Positions 24,393-44,054 of a DNA stretch of 64,000 nucleotides are shown piece by piece. Each line of letters begins with the position of its first letter. Position 1 is the first letter of the stretch. The translations under genes and the position numbers were made by a program. Source of the DNA: Candidatus Xenobia bacterium. GTDB lineage: Bacteria > Vulcanimicrobiota > Xenobia > Xenobiales > QWHO01. The notes under the pieces are model-generated. The model worked only from the letters and a program-made list of their open reading frames with translations. It had not been told where the DNA came from and ran no database searches. The stretch is taken from assembly GCA_045863235.1 (NCBI GenBank), contig BTUM01000002.1:96001-160000 (forward strand), read 5' to 3'.

Positions 24393-25037
24393 TCAGCCCC
24401 GCAGGTCGGCAATCGCGCGGGCGTAATCGCTCTGGCCGAAGATGGCGGTGGCGGCGATCAGGACATTGGCGCCGGCTTCGCGGCAGGCCGGCGCGGTCTG
24501 GGGCGCAACCCCACCGTCCACTCCGATGTCGATGGGGCGACCGGCCACCAGCTCGCGCACGCGACGCACCTTGGCCATGACCGCCGGCAGGAACCGCTGG
24601 CCCGAGAAGCCCGGGTTGACGGTCATCAGCAACACGTGATCAAGGTCATCCAGCACGTACTCCAGGAAGTCGACCGGAGTGGCCGGATTGACCGCCACGC
24701 CCGCTCGCATGCCGGCTTCTCGAATCTGGGCCAGCACCCGCTGCAGGTGGATACAGGCCTCGACGTGCACCGTCAGAAGCTGGGCTCCAGCCTGGGCAAA
24801 GGGCTCCACGAAACGACCAGGGTCAGCCACCATGGCGTGCACGTCGAAGGGTTTGTCGGTCACCGGCCGCAGGGCCTTGACCAGAACGGCACCAAAGGTC
24901 AGGTTGGGCACGAAGGCGCCGTCCATCACGTCGAGATGGATCACGTCCGCCCCGGCCGCGTCCACGGCCTGAACCTCCTCGCCCATGCGGGCAAAGTCGG
25001 CTGACAGGATGGAGGCTGATACTTGCAGCGGCCTCAA
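24393..25037 (-). CDS. rpe: Ribulose-phosphate 3-epimerase
   Basis: SILSADF, HLDVMDGAFVPN, MTVNPGFSGQ, VDGG. Confidence 0.95.
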   Translation of the reverse strand: MRPLQVSASILSADFARMGEEVQAVDAAGADVIHLDVMDGAFVPNLTFGAVLVKALRPVTDKPFDVHAMVADPGRFVEPFAQAGAQLLTVHVEACIHLQRVLAQIREAGMRAGVAVNPATPVDFLEYVLDDLDHVLLMTVNPGFSGQRFLPAVMAKVRRVRELVAGRPIDIGVDGGVAPQTAPACREAGANVLIAATAIFGQSDYARAIADLRG

Positions 25038-26080
25038 AGCTTCTCGCGCTTGGTCAGCTTGTCGTTGATGTAGACCTCGACCTCCGAGCCTGGCAGCCCG
25101 GAAACCAGCAGCTTCATGGTATCTCCCGAGGCCTGGCGCCCATCAAAGACCGTGTCGGTGCCCACCCCGTTGTTCAAGAGCACGCTGACGCGCTGAGCGT
25201 CGGCCCCGGTGGGCACATCGATGGCCAGCTGCCGGGAGCGATAGGCACGACCCTCGGGCGGGCCGGCGCTCACCTCGAATTCGACCGGAGTGCGAGCCGA
25301 TACTTTGCTGCCGGGTGGAGGCCCCTGCTCGATCACCTCGCCCCTGGCCGCGACCTGGTGAAACTTCCAGGTGATCCCGCCCATCTGCAGGTCAGCCTTG
25401 GACAGGGCCGTGCTCACCGTGTAGATGGGCTTGCCTTTCAGGTTGGGCACCGGGGTCATGGCTTCGGGACCACCGCCCTTTTGCATCTTGACGTCCACCG
25501 TGGTGCCCTTCTTCACCTTCTTGCCGGGAGCGGGCTCTTGCTTGAGGACCTCCTCGGGCTTCTCCGGGTCGGGCTTGCTCCAGGTGACCTTCCCCAGCTT
25601 CAGGGCGTTGTTGGCCAGCTCGATCTCGACCTCGCGCAGCGACTTGCCCACCAGGTCAGGGACCTCCATCAGCTCCGGACCGAGGCTCACGACCACGAGA
25701 ATCTCGTTGCCCTCGCGCACCTTGCGCTTGGGAGCCGGGTTCTGGGAGATGATCTCTTTCTCGGGCTTGCCTGTGTAGCGCGACTCGTGAACCTGCAAGC
25801 GCAGCCCGATCTTGGCCAGCATTTCGTTGGCCTCCTCGACGGTCTTGCCGGTAATGACCGGCACTTCGACCTCCTCGGGGAGCTTGAAGTAGCTCTCGTA
25901 GATGGTCCAGCCGTAGATGAGCGAAAAGACCAGCGTGATGCCTACAGCCAGCACCAGGGCTATGGTCTTTAACGTTCCCACGGCAAACTCGGCCGGGGTT
26001 TCTTTCTCGAAAGGGATGCGTGGATCGAGCAACGGCCCCTGCTCGGCACCCCCCGAGGGCTGTTTCGGCTCGCTAGCCAA
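25034..26080 (-). CDS. Membrane-anchored PASTA-domain protein (3 PASTA)
   Basis: Single TM followed by VPVITGK, VPDLVGK and VPNLKGK PASTA starts. Confidence 0.85.
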   Translation of the reverse strand: MASEPKQPSGGAEQGPLLDPRIPFEKETPAEFAVGTLKTIALVLAVGITLVFSLIYGWTIYESYFKLPEEVEVPVITGKTVEEANEMLAKIGLRLQVHESRYTGKPEKEIISQNPAPKRKVREGNEILVVVSLGPELMEVPDLVGKSLREVEIELANNALKLGKVTWSKPDPEKPEEVLKQEPAPGKKVKKGTTVDVKMQKGGGPEAMTPVPNLKGKPIYTVSTALSKADLQMGGITWKFHQVAARGEVIEQGPPPGSKVSARTPVEFEVSAGPPEGRAYRSRQLAIDVPTGADAQRVSVLLNNGVGTDTVFDGRQASGDTMKLLVSGLPGSEVEVYINDKLTKREKL

Positions 26081-26161
26081 GATCAATCCTCCGGTTCAGG
26101 CAACTGTGAATGGACATTCTCCCTGTTGATGCGGTCTCCTGGCAGGAGCTTTGAATTTCTT

Positions 26162-28225
26162 TCAGCGAGGAACCCAGGGCGGCGCGGGCGAGGCCGGGGA
26201 TGGCTCAACTGGCGTCAGAACGGGATCGGGAGTGGGCAGCGGAGCACTCGGGTCGGAGACGTAGAGGTGCACCTGGGTGCCCGGAGACACCTCCATGCCC
26301 GAGTCGGGCTCCTGCCCGACCACCTCGCCCTCCGGGGCGGCCGAGTTGATCCGGCGCGTCTCCCCCAGCTTCAATCCGAGCTCCTCGAGCTGGTTGCGAG
26401 CATCGTCCTCGCCCAGGCCGCTGAGATTGGGAACCACCACGCTGGGATTGGTCTTGACCGTCACCGTGCTGCCCTTGAGCGGATCCCCGGGCAACGGATC
26501 CTGGAAGACCACCGAATCCTGGGGACTGCTCGGGCCTTCCACGACCAGTTTGAGGCCCGACCGGCGCGCGATCTCCTCGGCTTCCTTGAGCGACTTCCCC
26601 TCCAGATCGGGGGCTGTCATTCCCAGGGAGCCAGCCGACAGGATGACGGAGACCTTGCGGCCTTTCACAGCCAGCGTTCCAGGCGAGGGGAGCTGCTCGA
26701 GGATCGTGTCTTCGGGAGCGCTGGCATCCTGGCGGGTCCCCCCCACCACCAGGGTCATCTCCAGGCTCTTAAGCAGGAGCTCGGCCTCCTCGCGGCCCAT
26801 GCCGACCAGGTTGGGGACGGCCGTCTTGGCGGCCCCGGTCGAAATGTAGACCGTCACCTGGCTGCCGCGAGCGAGCTCTGCCCCGGCCGACGGGTCCTGG
26901 CGGATCACCCGGCCTCCCGGCACCGAGGCGCTTTCCTCGCGCTCGAGCAGCACGCGAAAGCCCAGGGTCTCAAGCGCCTCGACCGCCTGAGGCTCGGTTT
27001 TCCCCGCCAGGTCGGGCACGGTGACCCTCTCGGGCGCCTGGCTCACCACCACCCGGACGAAGTCACCTTGCTTGCGCAGTTCGCCGGGAGTCGGGTCCTG
27101 CTCGAGAACAGTGTCTTGCCCGGCCGCGGCGTCGGGACGACGCTCGGATACTTCCAGGCGCAAGCCGAGAGCCTCCGCCTTCTGGCGAGCGGCCCGGAGC
27201 TCGAGCCCGACCAGATCGGGCACCACCACGCTGGGGGGTGGCATCAGCAACATTCCGATCAGCACCGATACGACCGCCAGCAAGGCCAGCGCGCCAAGAA
27301 GATGGGGAGTCCGCGAGGGTGCCGCGGCACGAGGCTCGACGGGTGGGCGCACGGCCGGCTGGCGGACCCGGGTATGCTCGAGAATGGGGCCGGGTACGGG
27401 GGCCGAGCCCTCCTGGAGGGCCCGAGCCATCTCGCTGGCAGAATTGAAGCGATCCTCGGGACGCTTGGCCAGGGCCCGCAGGATGACCTGATCCAGCCCG
27501 GGAGGCACGGCAGGATTGATCTGCGAGGCGCTGGGAGGGCTCTCCTGGATGTGCTTGAGGGCCACCTGCACCGGGGTATCGCCGGTAAAGGGCAGCCGGC
27601 CGGTCAGCATCTCAAACAACAGCACTCCGGCTGCGTAGAGATCCGTGGGCGGGCCCGAGTCCTTCCCTTGAGCCTGCTCGGGAGACATGTAGCTGACCGA
27701 GCCGAGCATCTCGCCCGTCCGGGTCAAGGTATGGTCGCCCAGTGCCTGAGCCACGCCGAAATCCGAGACGCGAGCCGAGCCGTGGGCATCCAGCAGCACG
27801 TTGCGAGCCGACAGGTCGCGATGGACGACCCCGTTGGAATGGGCACACTCGAGAGCGGAGAGCACCTGGACCATCATGGCCACCGCCTGGGGGGGAGGCA
27901 GCGGGCCACGCTGCAGGCGCTGGCGCAAATCCTCGCCCGGAACCAGCTCCATGATCAAGTAGGGCTCATCGGGCTCATCGGAGGAGTCGTAGACCTGAAC
28001 GATGTTCGGGTGGTTGAGCTTGGCGGCGCTCTTTCCCTCGCGCACAAAACGCAGCCGCGCATCCTGGTCGCGAGCGATCTCAGGGCGCGGGATCTTGATG
28101 GCAACCTCGCGTCCGAGTTTGAGATCGCGACCGCGATAGACCTGAGACATCCCGCCCTCACCGAGCAGGCCCAGAACTTCATATCGGCCGCCCAGACGGC
28201 GCGGCTCCTGGTTTTCGCCAGCCAT
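26162..28225 (-). CDS. pknB: Stk1/PknB-type protein kinase with 5 PASTA domains
   Basis: LGEGGMSQVY, VAIK, HRDLSARN, DFG, YMSPEQ, then a TM and five PASTA repeats. Confidence 0.85.
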   Translation of the reverse strand: MAGENQEPRRLGGRYEVLGLLGEGGMSQVYRGRDLKLGREVAIKIPRPEIARDQDARLRFVREGKSAAKLNHPNIVQVYDSSDEPDEPYLIMELVPGEDLRQRLQRGPLPPPQAVAMMVQVLSALECAHSNGVVHRDLSARNVLLDAHGSARVSDFGVAQALGDHTLTRTGEMLGSVSYMSPEQAQGKDSGPPTDLYAAGVLLFEMLTGRLPFTGDTPVQVALKHIQESPPSASQINPAVPPGLDQVILRALAKRPEDRFNSASEMARALQEGSAPVPGPILEHTRVRQPAVRPPVEPRAAAPSRTPHLLGALALLAVVSVLIGMLLMPPPSVVVPDLVGLELRAARQKAEALGLRLEVSERRPDAAAGQDTVLEQDPTPGELRKQGDFVRVVVSQAPERVTVPDLAGKTEPQAVEALETLGFRVLLEREESASVPGGRVIRQDPSAGAELARGSQVTVYISTGAAKTAVPNLVGMGREEAELLLKSLEMTLVVGGTRQDASAPEDTILEQLPSPGTLAVKGRKVSVILSAGSLGMTAPDLEGKSLKEAEEIARRSGLKLVVEGPSSPQDSVVFQDPLPGDPLKGSTVTVKTNPSVVVPNLSGLGEDDARNQLEELGLKLGETRRINSAAPEGEVVGQEPDSGMEVSPGTQVHLYVSDPSAPLPTPDPVLTPVEPSPASPAPPWVPR

Positions 28226-28532
28226 GGCGGCGCCATGTTCTGATCTTGAGCGATGAGTCCTCCCTCGCCCACGCACTCCAGCCCCCTGTAAGGTCTGTAC
28301 ACTTCTTGCAGGACCAAGGAAGGGGGAGAGGCTCCCTCGGTCAAACAGGGGGGCGGGGGAAGGACCCGCCGCGTACGGGTCGCGATCAGGCTTGTGTTTG
28401 GAGTAGCGCAGTGGCAGGGAGGTTCCCGGCAGATCCCGAACTTACTCAGCGGGGGAGAATGGCCAGCATTCTTCCTCTTATGTGCACCATGAAACTTGGC
28501 GGGCAGGCCCCCGCCTCTGGAAGGGAGATACG

Positions 28533-30671
28533 GTGACTCCCAAGTTTGGCTCTGGAAATCAGCAGCACAAGCCGCAGCTGCCCGCCAAAGGCACGGGTGG
28601 CTCTGGCCAGACGCCCACCGAAGGTGGGAAGCCCGGCGCTGCAACCTCCGGTCTGGTCCGAAAGGATGTTCCCTCGAAGAATCCCATGGCCGTCGAGGAG
28701 GGCGATAAGCCCATTTTCGGCGACATCCCCAAGGAGAATCTCGAGGAAGCTCTGGCCGAGGTGGATGCGGCGCTCGAGCAAAACCCCGACGACAAAGAAC
28801 TCCACATCCGCAAGTATCGCATCCTACGCAAGTCCAACGACCGCCCCGCAATGCGCGCCGCTCTGCAACAAGCGGCTCGGGTTTGCGGCGACTCCTTCTT
28901 CGGCGTCAAGCTGGCCGAGGCACTGGAAGAAGAAGGCTCTTTCACCAAGGCTCTCGAGTGGCGTCGGTGGGTGGCTCAGTTCACCCCCGAGGACCCCGAG
29001 ACAATCCGCCGCCTGGCGGCCACGGCCGTGCGAGCCGGGGCCCTGAAGACGGCCGAAGTCTCCTACACCAAACTGCTCGAGCTTCGGCAATCCGACGAAG
29101 CTCCGCTGGGCGGCACGTTCTACGAGGAGATGCTGGGCAAGGGACTGGAGACCGAAAAGCGCATCCAGCTCCACCAGATGGGCATCCGGCTGCTGGCCAA
29201 GGCGCTCGAGACCCGAGCCGACTCGCCTGCCCTGCTCGATTCGGCGGCTCGATTGAGCTACCGGGTCAAGGACATGGACGCCGCTCGGCTGTTCTTCGAG
29301 CGCTCTTTGAAGACCAACAGTGATCACAAGAATGCCCGCCAGTGGAAGGTCGAGCTGCTGCGGGTCTACTCCAACAAGGGCATGGTCAAGGAATGGCGTG
29401 CTCTCAACGACAGCATGATCGCCGAGTTGAAGGAGTATGTCAAAACCTATCGTGGCGACACGCGAGCCTGGCAGATCCTCACCAGCCAGTTGATTCAAGC
29501 GGGTGAGTTCGACGAGGCGATCCACTACCTCAAAGAAGCCCTGCTGTCCGACTCCAAGAACGCCCAGGCCCTGTGGGAACTGGGTCGACTCTACGTGCGT
29601 ATGGGCCGCTCCCAGGACGCGGTGGACTATTACGAAGAGATCATCAACGACCCCAACGAAAAGAAGTCGGTGCGCCGAGCCATCGAGCGCGCCCTGGCCG
29701 ATCTGTTCTTCAAGCTCGGTCGCTATCGGGAGGCCCTGGCCATCTATGATCGCGATCCCGAGGGCAACCTGCGCATGATTGCGCCCATCTACGAAGCCGT
29801 GGGGGATCTCGCCGAAGCCGAGAAACTGTACGTCAAGTCCGTCAAGCAGGCACCACGCGATGCGCGTTGCCACCTGGGGCTGGCCGAGTTCAAGGTTCGC
29901 CAGGAAGATTGGGCGATGGCCGCTGAAGCCGGTCGAGAAGGCCTGCGCTGCAGCTATGCCAACGAGGAAGTGCACTCCAACCTGGCGGTGGCTCTGGCCA
30001 CCGCCCAGATGAAGCTGGGTCAGGTCGAGGATGCCTTCAAGACCATGGAGGAGATCTGCGAGGCCTACCCTGACTCGATTCACCAGGTGTTCCGCAAGGT
30101 CAAGCTCATGGTGCGCCTGGGACGCAAAGAGGAAGCCCTGGAGCTGGCCGAGGAGGTACGCACCCAGGCTGAGCATCAAACCGGCTGCGCCCCGGCCTCG
30201 TCGGCCCTGTGGAGCCTGCTGGGCGACTGCTGCTCGCTGCTGGGCAACATCGGCGCGGCCGAGGAGGCTTATACCAACGCCTTGCGCTACGACTTCATGG
30301 ACTCGGTGGCCGTGCGCGGGCTGGGGATGGTGGCCGAGAAGCGCAACGACCTGCGCCGGGCGCTCGAGCTCTATCAGCGCTTCGTGGTGCTCGATCCCCT
30401 CAACCTGGCCGTGCCCACCATCAAGGGACGGATCGAGGAGCTGGTTGAAAAGGTCGGCCCACTGCCCGTCCCCGAGACGGCCGAGGAAGCCGCCGACACG
30501 ATGAGCGCCCAGGAAGATACCTGGACCCCACCGGCCCGGCCCGAAACGCCCGAGCCGGCTCCGGCGCCACCGCCGGCGCCCAAGCCCAAGCCTCAGCCTC
30601 CCCCGCCGCCCGATAACGCGACGCCCGAGGGATGGATGGGGACGGGCGAGGTGGACTGGTACCAGCAGTAA
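28533..30671 (+). CDS. Large tetratricopeptide repeat protein with Pro-rich tail
   Basis: Many TPR units (ALWELGRLY..., LWSLLGDC...). GTG start after GGGAG. Confidence 0.85.
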   Translation: MTPKFGSGNQQHKPQLPAKGTGGSGQTPTEGGKPGAATSGLVRKDVPSKNPMAVEEGDKPIFGDIPKENLEEALAEVDAALEQNPDDKELHIRKYRILRKSNDRPAMRAALQQAARVCGDSFFGVKLAEALEEEGSFTKALEWRRWVAQFTPEDPETIRRLAATAVRAGALKTAEVSYTKLLELRQSDEAPLGGTFYEEMLGKGLETEKRIQLHQMGIRLLAKALETRADSPALLDSAARLSYRVKDMDAARLFFERSLKTNSDHKNARQWKVELLRVYSNKGMVKEWRALNDSMIAELKEYVKTYRGDTRAWQILTSQLIQAGEFDEAIHYLKEALLSDSKNAQALWELGRLYVRMGRSQDAVDYYEEIINDPNEKKSVRRAIERALADLFFKLGRYREALAIYDRDPEGNLRMIAPIYEAVGDLAEAEKLYVKSVKQAPRDARCHLGLAEFKVRQEDWAMAAEAGREGLRCSYANEEVHSNLAVALATAQMKLGQVEDAFKTMEEICEAYPDSIHQVFRKVKLMVRLGRKEEALELAEEVRTQAEHQTGCAPASSALWSLLGDCCSLLGNIGAAEEAYTNALRYDFMDSVAVRGLGMVAEKRNDLRRALELYQRFVVLDPLNLAVPTIKGRIEELVEKVGPLPVPETAEEAADTMSAQEDTWTPPARPETPEPAPAPPPAPKPKPQPPPPPDNATPEGWMGTGEVDWYQQ

Positions 30672-30674
30672 GCG

Positions 30675-30705
30675 GGAGACGGGAGCAATCCCGTCTCCTT
30701 CTCTT
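30675..30705 (+). terminator. Strong hairpin / probable terminator
   Basis: GGAGACGGGA-GCAA-TCCCGTCTCC followed by TTCTCTT. Confidence 0.7.
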
Positions 30706-30743: not shown

Positions 30744-32645
30744 ATGGCCCTGCAACCCGACGCCGCCGAGCGCATCCAGGAGATCGAGAAGCGCCTCAAG
30801 GACGAGCCTAAGAATGCCGAACTGGCGGTTACGCTGGGGGAAGCCTATCTGCGCATCGACCGGGTGGAGGACGCCGCCGCCGCTTACGCCCGCTCGGCCG
30901 AGCTCGACCCGCGCTCGGAGCTCAAGTCTCTCTACTGGGAGTGGCTGGGTGGTGTGCGCGAGGCCCGCGGTGAGCTGGAGGAGGCTCTGGAGGCCTACTT
31001 CAACTGGGCTGAGGCAGAGCCGGCCGGGGTCGAGCCACTCGATCGAGTGGGCACCCTGCTCGTGCGCCTGCAACGTTGGACCGACATCGTGCTGCTGCGG
31101 CCCCACTACCTGCGCCGGCGCGAGCAGCAAGGCGGCTCGGACCCACGCCTGAGCGAGTCGCTGGCTCTCTACGGGTTCGTGCTCGACCAGCTGGGCAGCC
31201 CGGAAGAGACCACTCCCCTGGAGCGCACCTACGGCGCGCTCGAGGAAGACGCACGCAGCGTGTCCATGCGCTACCTGCTGGGAGTGCTCTTCTATCGCAC
31301 CGAGCATCTGGAAGCGGCCCGGGCAGAATTCGAGCGCGTGCTGGAGCTGGATGTGGACGGCACCTGGCGCGAGGACCGCTTCTCGCTGCAATGGGACGCC
31401 TCGGCCGCGCGCCTCATGCTGGCTCGTATCGCGCGCCTGCAGGGCGATCCGGAGGAAGCGCTGAGTCAGCTCTCCGAGTCGCTCAAGACTCGAGACGACG
31501 ACGCCGAGCGTCTGGAAGAGGTCGCCTCGCTGCTGCTCGATTATCGCCGCTATCAAGAGGCTTTGAGGATTCTGCCCGAGCTTGGCGAGCAGGCCCCCGG
31601 CTGGGTGCACTCTTACCAGGCGGAAAGCTTGCTGGGCCTCGGCCGCATCCGGGAGGCCGAGGCAGCCTTCTTGAGCCAGCTCGAAGGCCCCACTGAAGAA
31701 GAGGACGAGCCCGAGCGCGCCATCGAGGCCGGCAACGGCAAGCACCAGACGGCGCTGGCCCGAGCCGAGGAGGAATTTGCCCGAGGCAAGCCGGCAGCCG
31801 CACTCAAGCTGTTTACCAGACTTCTGGAGGGAGGGGCGGCCTGGCCGGCCCTGTGGGGCGAGGCACGCTGCCTGGCCGAGTTGGAGCGATGGCCCCAGGC
31901 GCTGGAGAGCCTGGAGAAACTGCTCGCTCTTCGGCCCGGCCTGGAAGAGGGCTGGAGCTTGTTGGCCGAAGCCGCCCGCCACACCGGTCAGCCCCGCTTG
32001 ACCACCCTGGCCCGGGTGCAACGCGAGCGCCTGCGCTCTGAGCCGGAAGTGTCGCCGGGGCTGGTTTACCCGGTGGGATCCGAGCGGGTGGTCGGATTCC
32101 TGGTGCAGGCTCGCTCGCTGCCCGGTCGAGGCGAGCTGATCGTGACCGGCGAAGGGGGCAAGCTGGCTGGAGAGCTGGCGCGCCTGGCTCTCTCCTTGCT
32201 GCAGATCCGCTTCGACGAGCTCGGGCTGGACGATCCGACCTATCGAGTGCTGCATCTGCACATTTCGGCTCTCTACCCGAGACTGGACGAGCCAGCCAAG
32301 GGTGACGAGAAGGAAGAGAGGCCCAGCCTGCGCGAGGATGCCGGAGGAGCGGTCATGGCCGCCCTGGCCATGGCGCTGCAGAACCAGGACCCGGCCCCGG
32401 GCCAGGTGGTGCTGGGCCGCATCGACCTGGAGGGACGTCTCTCGGGGCCGGTGGATGCAGGCGGCTCGCTGGCCCAGCTTTCCAGCGAGGGCTTCCCCTA
32501 CCGCCGGCTTCTCTTGCCGCGAACCAGCGCTTCCGAGCTGCTACGCCTGCCACCTGCCCTCTGGCTGTTGCCTGAGGTCACCCTCGTAGAGCGGGTGGAG
32601 GATCTGCTCGAGGGCATTGCGCGCCAGCTTCCGGAGGAAGGATAG
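30744..32645 (+). CDS. TPR protein fused to a degenerate Lon protease C-terminal (S16) domain
   Basis: TPRs, then PGRGELIVTG...LHLHI...EDAGGAV...GRIDLEGRL, which aligns with Lon_C (GKG.L.LTG, HIH, PSAG, TGEI.L.G). Confidence 0.7.
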   Translation: MALQPDAAERIQEIEKRLKDEPKNAELAVTLGEAYLRIDRVEDAAAAYARSAELDPRSELKSLYWEWLGGVREARGELEEALEAYFNWAEAEPAGVEPLDRVGTLLVRLQRWTDIVLLRPHYLRRREQQGGSDPRLSESLALYGFVLDQLGSPEETTPLERTYGALEEDARSVSMRYLLGVLFYRTEHLEAARAEFERVLELDVDGTWREDRFSLQWDASAARLMLARIARLQGDPEEALSQLSESLKTRDDDAERLEEVASLLLDYRRYQEALRILPELGEQAPGWVHSYQAESLLGLGRIREAEAAFLSQLEGPTEEEDEPERAIEAGNGKHQTALARAEEEFARGKPAAALKLFTRLLEGGAAWPALWGEARCLAELERWPQALESLEKLLALRPGLEEGWSLLAEAARHTGQPRLTTLARVQRERLRSEPEVSPGLVYPVGSERVVGFLVQARSLPGRGELIVTGEGGKLAGELARLALSLLQIRFDELGLDDPTYRVLHLHISALYPRLDEPAKGDEKEERPSLREDAGGAVMAALAMALQNQDPAPGQVVLGRIDLEGRLSGPVDAGGSLAQLSSEGFPYRRLLLPRTSASELLRLPPALWLLPEVTLVERVEDLLEGIARQLPEEG

Positions 32646-34136
32646 ATGTACTTTCAGGCTCACGACGTGGTCCAGGCCCTGGCCCTGGCACGCAAGGCCT
32701 GCCTGGCCATGGGTCACGCCTATCTTTGTCCCGAGCACCTTCTCATCGGGTTGGCCGAGGAGGATAGCGGGGAAGGCGGGCGTTTCCTGCGCCGCCGGGG
32801 CATCACCGCCAGCAAGGTGAAGAAGGCCGTGCTGACCCTGGTCGGTAAAGGCAAGGGAAGCGTGGAGGAGGACTGGGTGCCCCCTCCCAGCCTGCGGGCC
32901 CTGGGGGCGCTGCGGCTGGCCGAGGACATGGCCTCGAGCTACTCGCGGCCCGTCAACTCGATCTACCTGCTCTGGGCCGTGCTGCAAGATCGAGACAGCG
33001 ATGCCGCCAGCCTGCTGTTGAGCCGGGGGGCCGACCTGGTGAGCTGGTCGGCGGCCCTGGAAGAGCTGATGGGCGAGCCCACCCGTCGCCGCCCGCGCGT
33101 CTTCTCGCTGGCCTCCGGGCCCGAGCGCCCCGGCCAGCTGGCCGAGGCCAAGCGCTGGCGCGAGCGACTGAAGGCTTCAGCCCAGACGCTGAAGGACAAG
33201 ATCATCGGTCAGGACGCCGCCGTGGATCGGGTGGCCGCGGCGCTGGTGCGCTCGTGGGCGGGCCTGTCCGAGGCCGGTCGCCCCCTGGCCAGCTTTCTCT
33301 TCGCCGGTCCACGGGGGGCCGGCAAGACCACCCTGGCCGTCAGCCTGGCCGAGTTCTTGTTCAACGACCCCGAGCGGCTCATCCGCCTGAACCTGGACGA
33401 GTTCTCCGACGAGCTGCGAGCCATGCGCCTGGCCGGCCATGCTGGCGGGTCGCCCCAGGAGCAGGAGGGCGTGCTCACCATGCTGGCCCAGGAGTATCCC
33501 TACTCGGTGCTCTACCTGGAAGACGCCGACCGCGCCCATCCGCGTGCGCTGGATGTGATCCACCAGATCCTGGCCCGGGGCCACGTGATCGACGGACGCG
33601 GGCAACGGGTGGAATTTCGCGACAACGTGGTGATCCTGTCGGTGGTGGTGGACGCCGACATGTTCGAACGCGAGCAACCGGTGGGCTTCCGCCTCTCCGA
33701 CCGCCACCGGCTCTCAGCCCAGGACAAGCTCGAGCGCGCCCTCTTACCCGAGCTCGAGCGAGCCCTCAGCTCGGAAGCCCTCGAGCAGGTCGACGACGTG
33801 GTGCTCTTCCCCCCCCTGGGCCGCTCGGACATGGCCGAGCTGGTGGAGAAGTGGACCAACGACCTGGCCCGCCACCTCAAGCAGCGCCGCGGGGTCAAGG
33901 TGACGGTGCGACCGGAGGTCCACGAGTTCTTGATCGGCAAGGCCGAGGGCGGCCCCGAGGGTGCCGGCACGCTGCGCCGCCTGTTCACGCGCGAGGTGGA
34001 GAACCGATTGGCCCACGCCATGCTGGAAGAGCAGTACCACGAGGGCGACTGGGTGGAGGTGCAGACCGAGAAAGGCGAGCTGGTGGTGCGCCAGAAGAAG
34101 CGCACGCCGACCAGGCGAGAAGCCAAGAAGGGCTGA
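32646..34136 (+). CDS. Truncated ClpA/ClpC-like protein: Clp N-domain plus only the second AAA+ module
   Basis: GHAYLCPEHLLIGL (Clp repeat), IIGQDAAV, RPLASFLFAGPRGAGKT, DGRGQRVEFRD, GAGTLRR. D1 module absent. Confidence 0.8.
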   Translation: MYFQAHDVVQALALARKACLAMGHAYLCPEHLLIGLAEEDSGEGGRFLRRRGITASKVKKAVLTLVGKGKGSVEEDWVPPPSLRALGALRLAEDMASSYSRPVNSIYLLWAVLQDRDSDAASLLLSRGADLVSWSAALEELMGEPTRRRPRVFSLASGPERPGQLAEAKRWRERLKASAQTLKDKIIGQDAAVDRVAAALVRSWAGLSEAGRPLASFLFAGPRGAGKTTLAVSLAEFLFNDPERLIRLNLDEFSDELRAMRLAGHAGGSPQEQEGVLTMLAQEYPYSVLYLEDADRAHPRALDVIHQILARGHVIDGRGQRVEFRDNVVILSVVVDADMFEREQPVGFRLSDRHRLSAQDKLERALLPELERALSSEALEQVDDVVLFPPLGRSDMAELVEKWTNDLARHLKQRRGVKVTVRPEVHEFLIGKAEGGPEGAGTLRRLFTREVENRLAHAMLEEQYHEGDWVEVQTEKGELVVRQKKRTPTRREAKKG

Positions 34137-34886: not shown

Positions 34887-36026
34887 CTATTTCTCTTTCT
34901 TATCCTTCTTGTCCTCGGGCGGCGGCTCGGGAGGCTTGGGCTTGGTGGGGGCCCAGATAAAGATGCTCTTGGGACCACGCAGCAAGTTGTTGGGATTCCG
35001 GCCGGGCTGGTACTCCAGCCAGCCGGCCCCGGTGGGGTCGTCGATGCGCACGATCCGGTCGTTGCCAGAATCGGCGATGTAGATGCGACCCTGGCTGTCG
35101 AGGGCCATCCCCTCGGGACGCATGAAGCGGCCCAGTCCGGAGCCGTAACTGCCGATCTCGCGGGTCGCACGACCGGCCGCGTTGTCGGTGGCGGTCAGCC
35201 GGTTGGAGCTGGAATCGATGGACAGGATGCGGTTCTTGCGCAGCACCGCCTGGCGCGGCTGATAACCGGTCGGACGCAGCCCCACTCCCTGGTAGGCCTC
35301 CCACTCCTTGGGCTTCTGGTCGGTGCCGGGCGCAATCATCACTACCGAGCCGCCCGGCGGGTACTCGCCGCAGCACACGAACAACCGGCCGGTATCATCG
35401 AACCAGAGCTTTCCCGGTTGCTTCAGCATGGGGTCTGTGATGGTGCGAATCGGGTCACCCTGCCCGTCCTTGTAAACCACCAGCCGGTTGGCCCCGGTCT
35501 CGGAGACGAAGACCTCATCGCCCCAGACGGCGACGCCTTCAGGCTTATTCAAGTCCTTGAGCTCGGTCCATACGGGCAAACCCTCTTCGGGCTTGAGATC
35601 GAGCTTGACGATCCGATCGTTGCCCCGGTCGGCCACGTAGAGATAGCGATCTTGATCCACCCACACCTGGCCCGGATCGAGGAACTTGCCCGGGCCCCGC
35701 CCGGCTCCCCCCAGTCCCTTCAGATTGGTGCCCTTGAGGTCGTCCATGATGACGATGCGACCGTTCTCGCTGTCGGAGACGTAGATCTTGAAAGGCGAGG
35801 CGCTGGGGCTGGGCGACGGGGTCGGAGTCGAGACTGGCTCAAGAGAGGGTGAGGGCGACGGGCTGGTGTCGCCGGGGCTGGGGCTCAGGCTCGGACTGGG
35901 GCTGGTGTCGCCGGGGCTGGGGCTGGGGCTCGCCTCGCTGGAGGGCTCCTGAGCGGTCAGCGAGAGGCTCAAGAAGAACAGCGTGATGAGCAGAGTGAAG
36001 GTAAGGGAAAGGGCTCTATGTCTCAT
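34887..36026 (-). CDS. Secreted NHL-repeat (beta-propeller) protein with Ser/Pro linker
   Basis: [44 protein letters not shown]. Confidence 0.85.
35860..35930 (-). repeat. Intragenic tandem repeat encoding [10 protein letters not shown] x2
   Basis: GGGCTGGTGTCGCCGGGGCTGGGGCT occurs twice, 39 bp apart. Confidence 0.7.
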
Positions 36027-36078
36027 GAGGTCTGAGGGGAAGGTCTTCTTGTCCACCCCCTGGAACCCTGCCCTGGTC

Positions 36079-37080
36079 ATGGAAGTTTTGCATCGCCTTC
36101 AAGAACGAGCCCGAGCAAACCCGCGATTTATCTTGCTTCCCGAGGGAGAGGATGAACGTGTGCTGCAGGCGGCACGCTGGATCACCGAGCGGGGCCTGGC
36201 CCGGGTGGGCGTGTTGGGTCGTCCGGAGGCGCTGGCGCAGCGGGCCTCCCGGGCCGGAATCGAGTTGACCGGGGTGGAGCTGGTCGACCCCAAAGGCCAT
36301 CCCGATCGGGCCCGCTACGTGAGGGAATACTTTCAATCTCGCCGCCACCGCGGCCTGACCGAGATGGAGGCCGAGAAGGCCCTGGAGGACCCGCTCTACT
36401 TCGCTAACATGATGGTACGCCTGGGCGAGGCTGACGGCACCGTGGCCGGGGCGACCAACACCACCGCCCACACCGTGCGGTCCGCCCTCCTCTGCCTGGG
36501 TCTCAAGGCAGGAATCAAGACCGTCTCGAGCTTCTTCTTGATGGTGCTCAAAGATGGCACTCCCCTGCTCTTCGCCGACTGCGGGGTGGTGGTCAACCCC
36601 ACCGCTCCCCAACTGGCCGAGATCGCCTCCTGCACGGCCGACACCTGTCGCGCCTTCCTGGAGGTGGAGCCTAAAGTCGCCATGCTGAGCTTCTCCACCA
36701 AAGGGAGCGCCAAGGATCCACTGGTGGACAAGGTGGTGGAGGCCGTCCGCACGCTGCAGGCCCGCCGGCCCGAGCTGGCCGTGGATGGTGAGCTGCAACT
36801 GGATGCGGCCCTGGTGCCCGCTGTGGGGGCCAGCAAGGCCCCCGGCTCACCCGTCGCAGGCCAGGCCAACGTGCTCATCTTCCCCGACCTGCAATCGGGC
36901 AACATCGGCTACAAGCTGGTGGAGCGCCTGGCCGGGGCCACCGCCATCGGGCCCATCCTGCAGGGGCTGGAGCAGCCCTCCAACGACCTGTCGCGAGGCT
37001 GCAAGGCAGAGGACATCGTGCAGGCCACCGTGATCACGGCGGTGCAGGCTCAGCAGCGAAGCTCGACTTCGGTCCCGTAA
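36079..37080 (+). CDS. pta: Phosphate acetyltransferase
   Basis: [53 protein letters not shown]. Confidence 0.95.
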
Positions 37081-39292: not shown

Positions 39293-39324
39293 AAAGGCCC
39301 CCGTCATCTGGCGGGGGCCTTTTT
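39293..39324. terminator. Bidirectional terminator between the kinase and tRNA-Asn
   Basis: AAAGGCCCCCGTCA-tc-TGGCGGGGGCCTTTTT. A second hairpin AGGCTCCC-gtt-GGGAGCCT lies at 39265-39283. Confidence 0.8.
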
Positions 39325-39327
39325 CGA

Positions 39328-39402
39328 TGGCTCCGGAGGTAGGGTTCGAACCTACGGCCAACCGGTTAACAGCCGGTTGCTCTACCACTGAGCTACTCCG
39401 GA
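39328..39402 (-). tRNA. tRNA-Asn (GTT)
   Basis: TCCGGAGTAGCTCAGTGGTAGAGC...CTGTTAA...GGTTCGAACC...TCCGGAGCCA forms a cloverleaf with encoded CCA. Confidence 0.97.
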
Positions 39403-39505: not shown

Positions 39506-40282
39506 ATGGTTCCCGATCGGCGAACCGAGGTCGCCGTGGTGGGGGCGCGCGCATTTACCCTGATCGAGCTAATGATCTGCATCGCCATTCTGGCGATCTT
39601 CTCGGCCATCCCCCTGGCCGCCCGAGACGGTCTTCGGGCGGTCAATCGTGAGGCTGACTTCGGATCCGCGCTGCGCAATGCCCGAGGGCATCTCGCTGAG
39701 CTGCGCTCGGCCCCCTATGACGGCCTGCCCCCCCGCCGCCTGCGTGTGCCCGCATCCGCAAAAGTCCAGCTCACCTCTGATCTGGTTGTGGGCTCGGTGC
39801 AAGCCTTCGACCTCGAAGGCCGACCCCTCGCCGCTCCGGTCAGCGTGGACGCCATCAGCGGGTTGGTGCAGCTCGAGAGCGGTCTGGCCGGCCGCGAACT
39901 GGTCTTGCAGTTCGCCTATTATGCTCCCGACAGGGGCGAGGCCCACACCGTGCCCCCCACCGCGCCCTACCGAATTCGCCTCGAAAACCAGCCGGTCCAG
40001 CGCATTCAGCAGGTCCGTCTGGCTCAGGGAGACCGGCTCACGCTGATCACCTCCCGCTTGCTGAGCGACGGGCTCCTGGAGCTGCCGGCCAGCGCCGCAG
40101 GCAAAGTGGTGGAGGTCAGCTACCGGGGAGGGCGGATCGCCAACCAGATCAGCGGCCGCTTCCTCGACCAGCGACTGCGTCCGTCGACCCGGCCCGGCCG
40201 TTACAAACTGCTGGAAATCAAGGAGAACTACGGCGAGACAGCCCAGGTCATGCGGCTCACTTTACTGCGAGGAGAGCCGTGA
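39506..40282 (+). CDS. Type IV pilin/pseudopilin-like protein
   Basis: RA|FTLIELMICIAILAI class III signal peptide. Confidence 0.8.
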   Translation: MVPDRRTEVAVVGARAFTLIELMICIAILAIFSAIPLAARDGLRAVNREADFGSALRNARGHLAELRSAPYDGLPPRRLRVPASAKVQLTSDLVVGSVQAFDLEGRPLAAPVSVDAISGLVQLESGLAGRELVLQFAYYAPDRGEAHTVPPTAPYRIRLENQPVQRIQQVRLAQGDRLTLITSRLLSDGLLELPASAAGKVVEVSYRGGRIANQISGRFLDQRLRPSTRPGRYKLLEIKENYGETAQVMRLTLLRGEP

Positions 40283-40734
40283 TGAAGCGCCGGGCCTTCA
40301 CGCTGATCGAAGTCACAATGGTGCTGGCCGTCATCACGATCGTGTCCGGGCCGTTCTTCATGCTCTTCTTGTCGGAATATCGCCAGTTCGCCCGATTCTC
40401 GCGCAAAGCTGATCTGACCAACGAGGCTGCCCGGGCGGCCTACTCGGTGTTTGGACTGGCCTCCCGAATGCCCGATTTCAAGCTCGACCCGGACAACCAC
40501 GGGTTGCGCTTTGCCGATGGCTCGCATGTGGTCTATCGCGGTGGTCGCCTCGAACTCGAGCGAGCGGGAGGGCGACGCCCGCTGACTCGAAGCCGGGTGG
40601 TAGACTTCACAGCCATACGCCACGGCGACCGCCTGACCCTGAACCTGGCTCTGGAATGTCCACCCGACCAGCCCGGAATGCCGCTCCTGGTGGTGCGCTC
40701 GATCTTCGAACAGCCTGAGAGGCAAAGACCATGA
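40279..40734 (+). CDS. Minor pilin/pseudopilin (GspJ/PilW-like)
   Basis: KRRA|FTLIEVTMVLAVI; overlapping start/stop with both neighbours. Confidence 0.8.
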   Translation: MMKRRAFTLIEVTMVLAVITIVSGPFFMLFLSEYRQFARFSRKADLTNEAARAAYSVFGLASRMPDFKLDPDNHGLRFADGSHVVYRGGRLELERAGGRRPLTRSRVVDFTAIRHGDRLTLNLALECPPDQPGMPLLVVRSIFEQPERQRP

Positions 40735-41039
40735 GGCGAGGTCTGACCCTGATTGCGGTGGTGTGGTTCCTGGCCATGGCGACTGTCTTTTTCATGGGGA
40801 GCCGGGCTCTCGTGGACCAGTTCCGATATCGGCAGGCCAGCCAGAAGTATCGCTTGCAGGCCAGGGCCATGGCCGAATCAGGCCTGGAGTTCGCTCGACT
40901 GGAGCTGCGAGCAGGTCGCTGGCAGGGCCAGCGATTCCGGTCACCCAACCTGGAAGGCGGTTGGTTCGAGATCTGGCGGGAGGGCGATCAGATCCGGGTC
41001 AAGGGCTGCTCGGGGCGGGCCGTGGTGGAACTGCCATGA
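40731..41039 (+). CDS. PilX/GspK-like minor pilin
   Basis: RRG|LTLIAV (no Glu5) and QARAMAESGLE motif. Confidence 0.7.
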   Translation: MRRGLTLIAVVWFLAMATVFFMGSRALVDQFRYRQASQKYRLQARAMAESGLEFARLELRAGRWQGQRFRSPNLEGGWFEIWREGDQIRVKGCSGRAVVELP

Positions 41040-42235
41040 TCGGCTCGGCTCCTCCGACCCGAGTGGTGGCGCCGCCCCTGGAGCGGGTCTCCTACTGGAT
41101 GGTGGCCATGGGAATTCTGGGCACGGTGCTGGGGGGGTTGACCGGCTCGGTCCTGAGCGCCGGGATCGGCTTCAAGCTCTGCCTGGTTGGGCTCTTTCTC
41201 ATGCCTCTGTACAACTGGTTGCGCGGGCGCAACGAGCGCGATGATCGGGCGGTCATCGCAGCCCAGTTGAGCGCCCTGCTCGAGCTCAAGATTCCCCTCG
41301 ATCAGGCGCTGCGCGTCCTCAGCGCCGATGGAGGCCGCTCCATAACCACCTCGCTCTCGAGGCCCTATGCTGCTCTGTGCATCGTGGCCGACGAGGTAGC
41401 CTGCGGAGCCCCCCTGGGACGGGCCATCGAGACCACTGATGCCTTCGGCCCCCTCTGGCCCGCTCTGCTGACGCCCAACGACGAGAATCTGGCCGCCACC
41501 TTGCGGAGAATCAGCCGAGCCGAGAGCGACTCCCTGGAGTTGCCGGCCAGCCTGGCAGTGCGCTATTTCCTACAGTTTCCCTTAATTCTGGGGGTGGTCT
41601 TTTTCCTGCGCAGCTACATCCTGCCCACCTTCCTGCAGATCTTCGAGGGGATGGACTGGCGACTTCCACTGGCAACCGTGGCGATAATCTCGCTCAAGAG
41701 CTGGATTGAAGTTCCCCTTGGGCTCCTCTCGATGCTCATCTTCGGCAGCCTGATTCGCCCCGTCCGAGCCTGGATGTGGCGATTGCTGACGCGCTTGCCA
41801 GGGGTCTGGGCCATTACGAAGCTCAGCGAGCAAGCTCGTTTCTGTCAGGCGGCCGCGGCCGCAAGCTTACTGGGCTTGTCAAGCGACCGGGTCCTGGCCT
41901 GCGCCTGCGCTGCCACCCGTCACCCGGTCTACCGCCAGATCCGCTTCGGCCCCTCGGACTCTCTGGCCTCCGCCCTGCGCGCTCGCCCGGACCTTTTCGA
42001 GACCCGGCTGGTCTGGTTGGTCGAGCAGGGCGAGCGCCACCAGAACGTCCCGGAAGCGTTCGAGCTGGCGGCCAGCTTCATGCAAGACGAATTCGACGCC
42101 GGCCAGCGTCGCCTGGTGCACCAGCTGGACACAGCCCTGCTCTTGATGCTGGGGCTGCTCACCTGTATGGTGTCAGTGGGCCTGATGACTCCCATCATGC
42201 AGCTGAATCAGGCTCCCCTGGAGGGCCTGTGGTGA
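41036..42235 (+). CDS. GspF/PilC-family platform protein (1), with extra N-terminal TMs
   Basis: QLSALLELKIPLDQAL, ILPTFLQIFEG..LPLAT, LVEQGE. Confidence 0.75.
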   Translation: MIGSAPPTRVVAPPLERVSYWMVAMGILGTVLGGLTGSVLSAGIGFKLCLVGLFLMPLYNWLRGRNERDDRAVIAAQLSALLELKIPLDQALRVLSADGGRSITTSLSRPYAALCIVADEVACGAPLGRAIETTDAFGPLWPALLTPNDENLAATLRRISRAESDSLELPASLAVRYFLQFPLILGVVFFLRSYILPTFLQIFEGMDWRLPLATVAIISLKSWIEVPLGLLSMLIFGSLIRPVRAWMWRLLTRLPGVWAITKLSEQARFCQAAAAASLLGLSSDRVLACACAATRHPVYRQIRFGPSDSLASALRARPDLFETRLVWLVEQGERHQNVPEAFELAASFMQDEFDAGQRRLVHQLDTALLLMLGLLTCMVSVGLMTPIMQLNQAPLEGLW

Positions 42236-43185
42236 GAGGGGACCGTTTGCTCTTCGACCTGGCGGGCCTGCTCGAGATCGGCTTCAACCTGACCGATTCC
42301 CTCCAGCGCCTGCGGCAGAATGCTCCGCCCGCCCTGGCCGCCGAACTGGCAGACAGCGAGCGCCGCGGCACCCTCGAGCAGGCCAGTTGGGTCGACCCCA
42401 GCGTTCGACCTCTCCTCGGCTCCCAACCTGAGGACCTCTCAGAAGCGCTGCGATTGGCCTCCCGAATGCTCCGCGAGAAAGAGCGGCGCCAGATCGAGAT
42501 GAACCGCACTCTGAGTCAGCCCCGCCTGGTGTTGCTGGTGTTCGCGGTGACTTTCGCGGCCCTGCTCCTTCTGGTGATCCCGACCTTTGAGCGAATCTAC
42601 ATCGAGTTCTTCATGGCCCTACCTTTGCCCACGCGCTTGCTGCTCTGGTTGGCCAACAATCCTCTGGTGCCCGCGCTGGGCACGCTGGTGACCGCGGGCG
42701 GGTTGTTCGTGCTCTCCAGCCATCCTCGGGGTGACGCGGTGCGAATGCGTCTGCCCTGGATCGGAAGCCTGCTGGGCCTGCAGCAAAGTCTCCTCTGGCT
42801 GCGCTGGCTCAACGCTCTTCTGGCCCGCGGTCTGCCGCTCGGCCAGGCGGCCCGGGAGGCAACCGCAGTATGCCCTTCCCCCACCTTTCGGGGTTCCATG
42901 GCCGGAGTGGCCGACTCCATCGAGAGAGGCGGCTCTCTGGGGCCTGCCCTGCTCAAAGTGCGGCTCTTCCCCCCCCTGACGGCCTGGATGGTCCAGCAGG
43001 CCGAAGCTGCCGGCTGCAGTTTCGAGCCCATCGCCGCAGCCCTCGAGGTGCAGGGCCAGCGCTCATTCTCGCGAGGCCTCCCCCTGCTGGAGCCGTTCTT
43101 GATCGTCAGCCTGGCTGTACTTCAGTTGTGGGTCGTCGTGAGCTTGTTCCTCCCTATCTACCAGTTGATCGGCGCTCTGGGATGA
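42232..43185 (+). CDS. GspF/PilC-family platform protein (2)
   Basis: LAGLLEIG, VIPTFERIY...LPLPTR, IERGGSL, LEPFLI, LFLPIYQL. Confidence 0.8.
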   Translation: MRGDRLLFDLAGLLEIGFNLTDSLQRLRQNAPPALAAELADSERRGTLEQASWVDPSVRPLLGSQPEDLSEALRLASRMLREKERRQIEMNRTLSQPRLVLLVFAVTFAALLLLVIPTFERIYIEFFMALPLPTRLLLWLANNPLVPALGTLVTAGGLFVLSSHPRGDAVRMRLPWIGSLLGLQQSLLWLRWLNALLARGLPLGQAAREATAVCPSPTFRGSMAGVADSIERGGSLGPALLKVRLFPPLTAWMVQQAEAAGCSFEPIAAALEVQGQRSFSRGLPLLEPFLIVSLAVLQLWVVVSLFLPIYQLIGALG

Positions 43186-44054
43186 AGCCTGTCCAGCTCA
43201 TCGACCTGACACGCCACCTGGCCCTGATGGCCCGCCTGGGCTATCCCCTGGCCGAGGGGCTGGCGATGGCCACCGACCGCCCCGAGCTGATCGAATCGAT
43301 CCGGCGCGGCGACAGCCCCGGCCAGGCCCTGCGCCGCTGGCCGCGCATCTTTTCGCCCTTCTACCGCGAGATGGTAGAAGCGGCCGACAGCTCTCCCCGG
43401 GCGGCCGAAATCCTGAGCGACCTGAGCCGCTGGCTCGAGCGCCAGGAGTCCTTGCGACTCGCTCTGGCGGGCGCTCTGGCCTATCCCCTGCTCACCCTCA
43501 ATCTCCTGTTGCTGCAGGTCAGCCTGCTCTTCTGGCTGGCTCCCATGAACCTGGGTCTGGGGCCGTTCGCCCACTGGCTGTCCCTGGCCGCTCTAGTCGG
43601 CTTCGCGCTGACACTTCTCCCGGCGGGACTCGATTACGTGTCCGGGTTGTTGCCCGGAACCCGACGCCTGCGCCGGCTGATCGAGGAGAGCCTCTGGTGT
43701 CGCGCCCTTGGGGTCCTGCTGGGAACCGGTCTGGATTTACCCCGGGCCCTGGAGCTTTGCGGCAGCCTTGTTGCGCGGCACGCCTCTCTGGCCGAGAAGG
43801 TGCGCTCGGGAAGCTCCCTGGCCACCGCCCTCCAGCCGGCCAACCCTACAGTGATCTGGGCTGCCGAGGCTGCCGAGCGAACGGAGGAGCCTGCCGCAGC
43901 CTTGCTCTTTGCGGCTGACCAGCTCGAGCAACAAGCCGATGACCTGCGCGAGCGGATCATTCGTTCGGCCGAGCCCCTGGCGACTCTGGCAGTGGGAGTC
44001 CTGGTAGCGCTGGTCCTGACCTCGTTCTGGAGTGCCTTCTACGGCTCCGTCTGA
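43182..44054 (+). CDS. GspF/PilC-family platform protein (3)
   Basis: HLALMARLGYPLAEGL, FSPFYREMV, ALAYP, LGVLLGTG, AEPLA. Confidence 0.75.
   Translation: MKPVQLIDLTRHLALMARLGYPLAEGLAMATDRPELIESIRRGDSPGQALRRWPRIFSPFYREMVEAADSSPRAAEILSDLSRWLERQESLRLALAGALAYPLLTLNLLLLQVSLLFWLAPMNLGLGPFAHWLSLAALVGFALTLLPAGLDYVSGLLPGTRRLRRLIEESLWCRALGVLLGTGLDLPRALELCGSLVARHASLAEKVRSGSSLATALQPANPTVIWAAEAAERTEEPAAALLFAADQLEQQADDLRERIIRSAEPLATLAVGVLVALVLTSFWSAFYGSV

Follow-up and report, generated by a model that had tools for sequence, protein, structure and literature searches.

Two adjacent genes on the forward strand of the window (the whole stretch of 64,000 nucleotides analysed here), gene 1 (30744–32645, 633 aa) and gene 2 (32646–34136, 496 aa), constitute a real, conserved and lineage-restricted pair that is apparently undescribed and whose mechanism we infer from conservation. 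Gene 1 encodes a TPR-pseudo-Lon protein, as indicated by profile, sequence and structure matches, and gene 2 encodes a ClpC-derived N-domain followed by a single AAA+ module (D2) that is predicted to be a pseudo-ATPase. The pair might be a lineage-specific regulator of ClpP proteolysis composed of two pseudoenzymes, a non-catalytic, ClpP-docking gene 2 protein and its TPR-pseudo-Lon partner; judging from sequence conservation, we give this reading even odds (a probability of about 0.5). The most informative feature of the pair is the retained ClpP-docking loop of gene 2, which is missing from an earlier, sequence-only reading of this DNA. The adjacency reported there was confirmed together with both reading frames: gene 1 ends at 32645 and gene 2 starts at 32646, leaving a gap of 0.

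Distribution and evolution of the pair

The pair is restricted to a single uncultured bacterial order. A gene 2 profile made from 26 sequences matches 34 of the 251 genomes of the phylum at an E-value of 1e-75 or better; these are 34 of the 40 genomes of its own Eremiobacterota order, and none of the 211 other genomes of the phylum gave a match in the profile search (best six candidates per genome). The six genomes of the order that lack gene 2 make up one genus in which ClpC and ClpP are still present, and the intact ClpC and ClpP of this pair-less genus count against a role of the pair in ClpP regulation. Among 41 relatives, gene 1 has the same distribution as gene 2. In all 34 carriers (30 loci measured by script, the genome of origin and three loci read from match coordinates), the two genes lie next to each other in a constant order, and neither is found alone; the intergenic gap is between -4 and +49 in 29 of the 30 scripted loci and 253 in the remaining one. 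The trees of the two genes are largely congruent by eye. The dN/dS values are 0.01–0.18 in all four domains (11 within-genus pairs with unsaturated dS), and both genes are under purifying selection.

The probability that the two genes are merely decaying fragments of lon and clpC is negligible. Such decay could be suspected from the low identity of the pair (35–57%, compared with 82–87% for ClpC, in genome pairs that reach beyond the genus and with genus g3 excluded), but the frames are open across 8 genera, the pair is kept in genomes of 2.2–2.9 Mb, and the low dN/dS, the order-wide conservation and the shared distribution of both genes refute this explanation. Intact genes of both parental types are also present elsewhere: the host genome carries an intact clpC near mcsB, a clpB, two lonA and two clpP genes. 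Recent decay, which the sequence-only reading had tied to a lack of conservation in relatives, is contradicted by the synteny in 34 of 40 genomes.

In wider searches, gene 1 yielded, among the best 8000 candidates (lengths 326–1386) from 5.8 billion proteins, 23 family matches, after which the score falls from 563 to 131 bits and generic TPR proteins begin. The gene 2 profile, compared with 1.84 billion representatives, returned nine family-type proteins (469–515 aa) in its first 13 matches, and three of these nine are more diverged. Named records that are 90–99% identical to gene 2 include Candidatus Eremiobacteraeota and Vulcanimicrobiota MAGs as well as others labelled Burkholderiales, and a few homologues carry other labels (Nitrosotenuis, Armatimonadetes, Burkholderiales); misbinning is suspected behind these odd taxon labels. 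Searches for hidden, diverged copies with the gene 2 family profile (best six candidates per genome) came up empty in genus g4 and elsewhere in the class; none were found in five genomes with the gene 1 alignment or with P0133, a diverged gene 2 member, and none in the neighbour block of four genomes. All homologue counts given here describe a family and carry no statistical test because kin are not independent.

Genomic context

A hairpin with an 11-bp stem and a GCAA loop (30674–30699, forward strand) is located 3' of the TPR gene that precedes gene 1 and is a possible terminator. In the sequence-only reading, this was a strong hairpin that insulates the pair. The hairpin is real, but the insulation is not borne out: the whole intergenic stretch that contains it has a folding z of only -1.8 (13 of 200 shuffles are equally good), a terminator scan made no call at 30674–30699, and the upstream TPR gene lies immediately 5' of gene 1 in its own genus only. 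Because the scan made no call and the other genera have a different upstream gene, the hairpin is best placed outside the conserved system. It is near-identical in three genomes of the same genus and changed in a fourth; a repeat element is ruled out, given that a search allowing up to 4 mismatches detected a single copy in the genome. Contigs from four RNA libraries of four studies overlap parts of gene 1 and gene 2, although such contigs say nothing on level, strand or co-transcription and may contain DNA. Two of them stop at 30667–30668, just 5' of the hairpin, a weak hint at termination, and one contig spans the hairpin.

The steady neighbours of the pair encode an NHL protein, a phosphotransacetylase-like protein, a TPR protein and a PASTA kinase. 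Neither clpP nor clpC, lon or mcsB adjoins the pair, and this distance counts against a regulator of ClpP. The neighbour block is also found in the genus without the pair, so that the gene order may simply be ancestral. When compared with known anti-phage defence systems (PADLOC), gene 1 has no match and gene 2 gives weak, partial AAA+ matches only (20–29 bits).

Gene 1: a TPR array with a dead Lon fold

The protein product of gene 1 shows many TPR family matches and, at residues 452–623, a match to Lon_C (PF05362; 29.4 bits, cut-off 21.1); its sequence also matches Lon protease structures. Profile matches, the AlphaFold model (pLDDT 84.7) and the alignment delineate a TPR solenoid at residues 7–431 (30762–32036), and profile, alignment and structure match place a Lon protease-fold domain at residues 433–628 (32040–32627). 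The model of this domain matches the protease domains of B. subtilis and E. coli Lon with Z of 21.3 and 20.8, respectively (rmsd 2.6 Å over about 177 residues), and the Lon-like domains of BrxL, RadA and ComM with Z of 16–21. The C-terminal domain thus aligns with Lon_C as originally proposed, both by the profile score above the cut-off and by Z of 20–21 for the model. The AAA+ module of Lon is absent, and the TPRs stand before the Lon domain. The catalytic Ser and Lys are replaced by D532 and S575, respectively; among 48 distinct homologues, the Lys is never present and the Ser is found in 8, so this protein is, by sequence, a pseudoprotease that has lost the Ser-Lys dyad.

Most of the near-invariant residues in the 48 homologues belong to the N-terminal part of the TPR array (first 240 residues). 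The array includes an insertion with the motif WxExRFxLxW (residues 208–217, 31365–31394), in which W208, E210, R212, F213, L215 and W217 are each conserved in at least 95% of the aligned homologues; this insertion is a candidate partner-binding surface. Conservation is lower in the Lon-like domain, where four residues reach 95% or above. The ESM Atlas returned generic TPR and Lon clusters only, with feature scores of 0.82 throughout.

Gene 2: a ClpC derivative without a motor

The domains identified in gene 2 are Clp_N (twice; 32646–33071), AAA_2 and ClpB_D2-small, and neither the first AAA+ module (D1) nor the M domain was found by domain profiles or structure-sequence matches. The model (pLDDT 82.4) matches ClpB NBD2 at TM 0.9 and has a complete D2 fold. 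Hence the half-Clp architecture recognised earlier holds: a ClpC N-domain is joined directly to the second AAA+ module, without D1.

The motor residues were compared between 54 distinct gene 2 homologues longer than 440 aa (fragments dropped) and 118 double-ring control proteins of 750–900 aa, drawn from the gene 2 profile search of the representatives. Every motor residue is present in 110–118 of the 118 controls. The Walker B DE, the arginine finger, the sensor 2 Arg and the pore Tyr, each found in 115–117 controls, are each absent from all 54 family members; the Walker B position of the window copy (33519–33524) reads ED. Sensor 1 Asn is kept in 11/54, Walker A Lys in 44/54 (Arg in the other 10) and Walker A Thr in 13/54. 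Altogether, 35 of the 51 positions that are at least 90% conserved in the controls drop below this level in the family, and among the 16 kept positions are two residues of the ClpP loop, its Gly and its Phe. Five residues that are absent from the controls (W171, W204, R244, W403 and F447) are fixed across the family and point to a new interface.

On this evidence, gene 2 is predicted to be a pseudo-ATPase rather than a working motor, and the remodelling activity suggested in the sequence-only reading is contradicted by the loss of the hydrolysis and threading residues throughout the family. It is accordingly very improbable that gene 2 functions as a catalytically active, single-ring remodeller of the ClpX or Skd3 type, targeted by gene 1. 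Such an activity would agree with the complete D2 fold and with the Walker A motif, GPRGAGKT (33306–33329), which is intact in this copy and could allow nucleotide binding to persist in some members, but this motif is eroded across the family, with the Lys-to-Arg replacements and the rarity of the Thr, and the four elements listed above are missing from every homologue.

With respect to the origin of gene 2, its family profile recognises ClpC as the top match in the host genome (328.8 bits), followed by ClpB (265.4 bits). In a D2 tree from a quick IQ-TREE search, which included 20 of the 54 family rows and every third control row (four Bacillota rows being apparently mis-cut), the family is a single cluster, set on a very long branch whose placement lacks resolution. 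Derivation from a clpC duplicate by loss of D1 and M is suggested by two lines of evidence, the profile score and the presence of GFR in the loops of both proteins.

The N-domain pocket

The N-domain of gene 2 keeps E30 and S82-x-R84, the counterparts of ClpC E32, T81 and R83. In ClpC numbering, E32 and S/T81 are present in all 54 homologues and R83 in 53, and E106 is present in none and R9 in 4. We take T81 and R83 to belong to the E32 pocket, by repeat symmetry. In ClpC, E32 marks pocket pArg2, and T7, R9 and E106 form pocket pArg1 (PMC12583610). Gene 2 thus seems to have kept one of two phosphoarginine-type pockets and to have lost the one on the E106 side. The 72 N-domain controls were picked on the EH motif, which makes their E32 figure circular; R83 is kept in only 34 of them.

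McsB was found in none of the 19 genomes of family f3, all of which keep the gene 2 pocket, so the ligand is probably not phosphoarginine made by McsB. The pocket probably binds something else, for example, a partner residue that is acidic or phosphorylated; in mycobacterial ClpC2, a pocket of this kind accommodates an acidic helix (PMC13345244). A decoy for phosphoarginine degrons is weakened as the main reading by the absence of McsB from these pocket-keeping genomes, with some room left for it by the presence of phosphoarginine in mycobacteria without a known McsB (PMC9604228).

One alternative that can be tentatively entertained, although it is appreciably less probable than ClpP regulation, is that the pair forms a scaffold or signalling complex independent of ClpP, in which the dead folds are interaction platforms, the loop and the pocket recognise gene 1 or some other partner, and there is possibly a tie to the PASTA kinase. 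The pocket is kept not only where McsB is absent but also in genus g3, where the canonical ClpC has both pockets eroded (4 of 4 sequences examined) and the pseudo-ClpC keeps one. Furthermore, the family has acquired new invariant residues, the PASTA kinase gene is present in 13 of the fetched loci, and plant SMXL proteins provide a precedent for repurposed Clp ATPases. The kinase, however, is part of the neighbour block that might reflect plain ancestral gene order, and a scaffold of this kind leaves unaccounted for the exact hydrophobic-Gly-Phe pattern that all 54 homologues show at the ClpP-docking position.

A doubtful alternative is that gene 2 acts on ClpC, either as a dead subunit in or capping ClpC rings or, similarly to ClpC2, as an N-domain competitor for adaptors or substrates, with gene 1 perhaps poisoning Lon or bridging to it. 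The small-domain Arg R445, kept in 53 of 54 homologues, fits such a scheme, as it does ClpP regulation: it is presumably equivalent to E. coli ClpB R819, mutation of which is reported to block oligomerisation. The single retained pocket, as described for ClpC2 (PMC13345244), and the two intact LonA genes of the genome also fit. Conversely, gene 2 lacks the D1 and M domains with which it could pack into a two-tier ring, the AAA+ module of Lon is missing from gene 1, and the retention of the pocket is uncoupled from McsB.

The ClpP-docking loop and a proposed mechanism

The evidence that favours regulation of ClpP comes primarily from the motif VGFR (residues 346–349, 33681–33692), which is located in a flexible loop of low pLDDT at the position of the ClpC IGF motif. 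All 54 homologues have [VLM]G[FL]R in this loop, which aligns with IGFR of the host ClpC; the host ClpB lacks it. This loop marks the Clp ATPases that bind ClpP: it docks ClpC on ClpP and sets ClpC apart from ClpB, and its mutation abolishes the binding of ClpC to ClpP (PMC10149685; 10.1101/2025.06.06.658286). ClpP itself is present in 44/44 genomes of the class. Against docking, a motif of three residues within a flexible loop could now serve another pocket, and Arg349, invariant in the family and present in 5% of the controls, is not a general feature of ClpP docking, although the ClpC of this order mostly has GFR too.

Under the ClpP-regulator reading, the VGF loop of gene 2 would dock in the hydrophobic sites of ClpP, and, being unable to unfold or thread substrates, gene 2 would compete with ClpC and ClpX for ClpP or change the ClpP gate. 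More loosely, gene 1 might bind gene 2 via the conserved half of its TPR region and might, through the dead Lon fold, provide oligomerisation and thus the multivalency needed for loop docking; a conserved ring interface in gene 1 is unsupported, given the lower conservation of the Lon-like domain. Inhibition or sequestration of ClpP is a more conservative guess than ATP-independent activation. Activation is conceivable because ADEP fills the H-sites of ClpP without a motor and opens it (PMC9035409). An elaborate version, which we regard as unlikely, is an ATP-independent ClpP cap: the gene 1 pseudo-Lon ring would replace the D1 tier in trans, TPR arms would hold six gene 2 subunits whose VGF loops open ClpP in the manner of ADEP, and the N-domain pocket would select a ligand other than McsB-made phosphoarginine. 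If this were true, the cap would activate ClpP as a protein-encoded factor with no motor, in analogy to ATP-independent proteasome caps. The idea of a non-proteolytic, repurposed system, perhaps inhibiting Clp or Lon or serving as their decoy, put forward from the sequence at the outset, fits for its Clp part; no link to Lon was found. The ClpP-control reading can be tested directly with purified proteins, no host culture being needed.

Comparison with known systems

In the literature found, which covered few subscription papers and no supplements, the pair, a dead D2 with a ClpP loop and a TPR-pseudo-Lon fusion are undescribed; within the same bounds, no described system with this layout turned up, as the sequence-only reading had supposed. 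Each ingredient, in contrast, has a precedent: ClpC2 as a non-catalytic ClpC, SMXL as a repurposed Clp, and RadA and ComM as dead Lon scaffolds.

Gene 2 shares the double Clp_N, the D2 fold and the ClpP loop with ClpC, the class I Hsp100/Clp unfoldase that is the partner of ClpP. It differs in the lack of D1, M and the catalytic and pore residues and in the loss of one N-domain pocket; with no D1 and no motor, it is not a ClpC, just as gene 1, with no dyad and no AAA+ module, is not a Lon. Mycobacterial ClpC2 is likewise a non-catalytic ClpC derivative with one phosphoarginine site (PMC13345244). It is, though, a small repressor that binds DNA and has neither an AAA+ module nor a ClpP loop, whereas gene 2 keeps a whole dead D2 with the loop and has a dedicated partner gene.

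Similarly to gene 1, RadA/Sms, ComM and BrxL employ the Lon protease fold outside proteolysis, the likeness to BrxL consisting of the fold match. In these proteins, the fold is joined to an active, DNA-directed ATPase; in gene 1, its only fusion partner is the TPR array. The dead Lon-like domains of RadA and ComM are hexamer scaffolds (PMC11612176). Plant SMXL proteins are Clp ATPases repurposed for regulation (PMC9133912) and, unlike gene 2, generally retain both D1 and D2. The combination of a repeat domain (ankyrin) with a lone NBD2 in Skd3/CLPB, also a gene 2 match, resembles the association of a TPR protein with a D2. For neither Skd3 nor SMXL is a pseudo-Lon partner described in the literature found. 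Skd3 is an active disaggregase.

ADEP-type activators would occupy the same H-sites of ClpP as proposed for gene 2, without a motor (PMC9035409), but are small molecules; literature searches returned no protein-encoded, dead AAA+ equivalent. The ClpP partners in the literature found are AAA+ proteins with an active motor, adaptors that operate via such motors, and small-molecule mimics. A dead AAA+ protein that keeps the docking loop would, if the proposed reading is true, represent a new form of ClpP control, either as a natural inhibitor or as a motor-free activator, and the pair is a clean natural experiment on which surfaces of ClpC can be separated from its motor.

Gene neighborhood of the pair

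The pair of the TPR-pseudo-Lon and ClpC-derived genes is embedded in a block (window positions 25034-30671 and 34887-37080) that encodes a PASTA kinase, a PASTA protein, a 729-aa TPR protein, an NHL propeller protein and a gene that, judging by eye, is named phosphotransacetylase-like. This block is conserved across the order, with rearrangements, and is still present in the one genus without the pair. Elsewhere in the window, inspection by eye suggested a cluster of prepilin-like and GspF/PilC-like genes (39506-44054), as well as a translated frame that resembles the antisense of a tRNA gene (39300-39400).

McsB, ClpC and other Clp-like proteins

The class-wide search detected McsB in none of the 19 genomes of family f3. 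Both pArg motifs of the N-domain are eroded in the four ClpC sequences examined from g3, whereas the two ClpC sequences from g8 retain these motifs without McsB. In the source genome (L129:2852-8529, on G000:C14), the run of mcsA-like, mcsB and clpC genes is interrupted by a 510-aa gene, located between mcsB and clpC, whose product by eye looks like a cytochrome P450.

The same genome carries additional Clp-like AAA+ genes that are atypical in that the first module is degenerate (G000:C1:95833-100847 and C9:72236-74503); an LGL loop motif is found in two of the three frames. An unrelated 532-aa protein from the gene 2 profile search (P0185) combines a ClpC N-domain, a remnant of the M-domain and a degenerate D2, and lacks D1. 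Thus, judging from this single protein, loss of D1 also occurred elsewhere.
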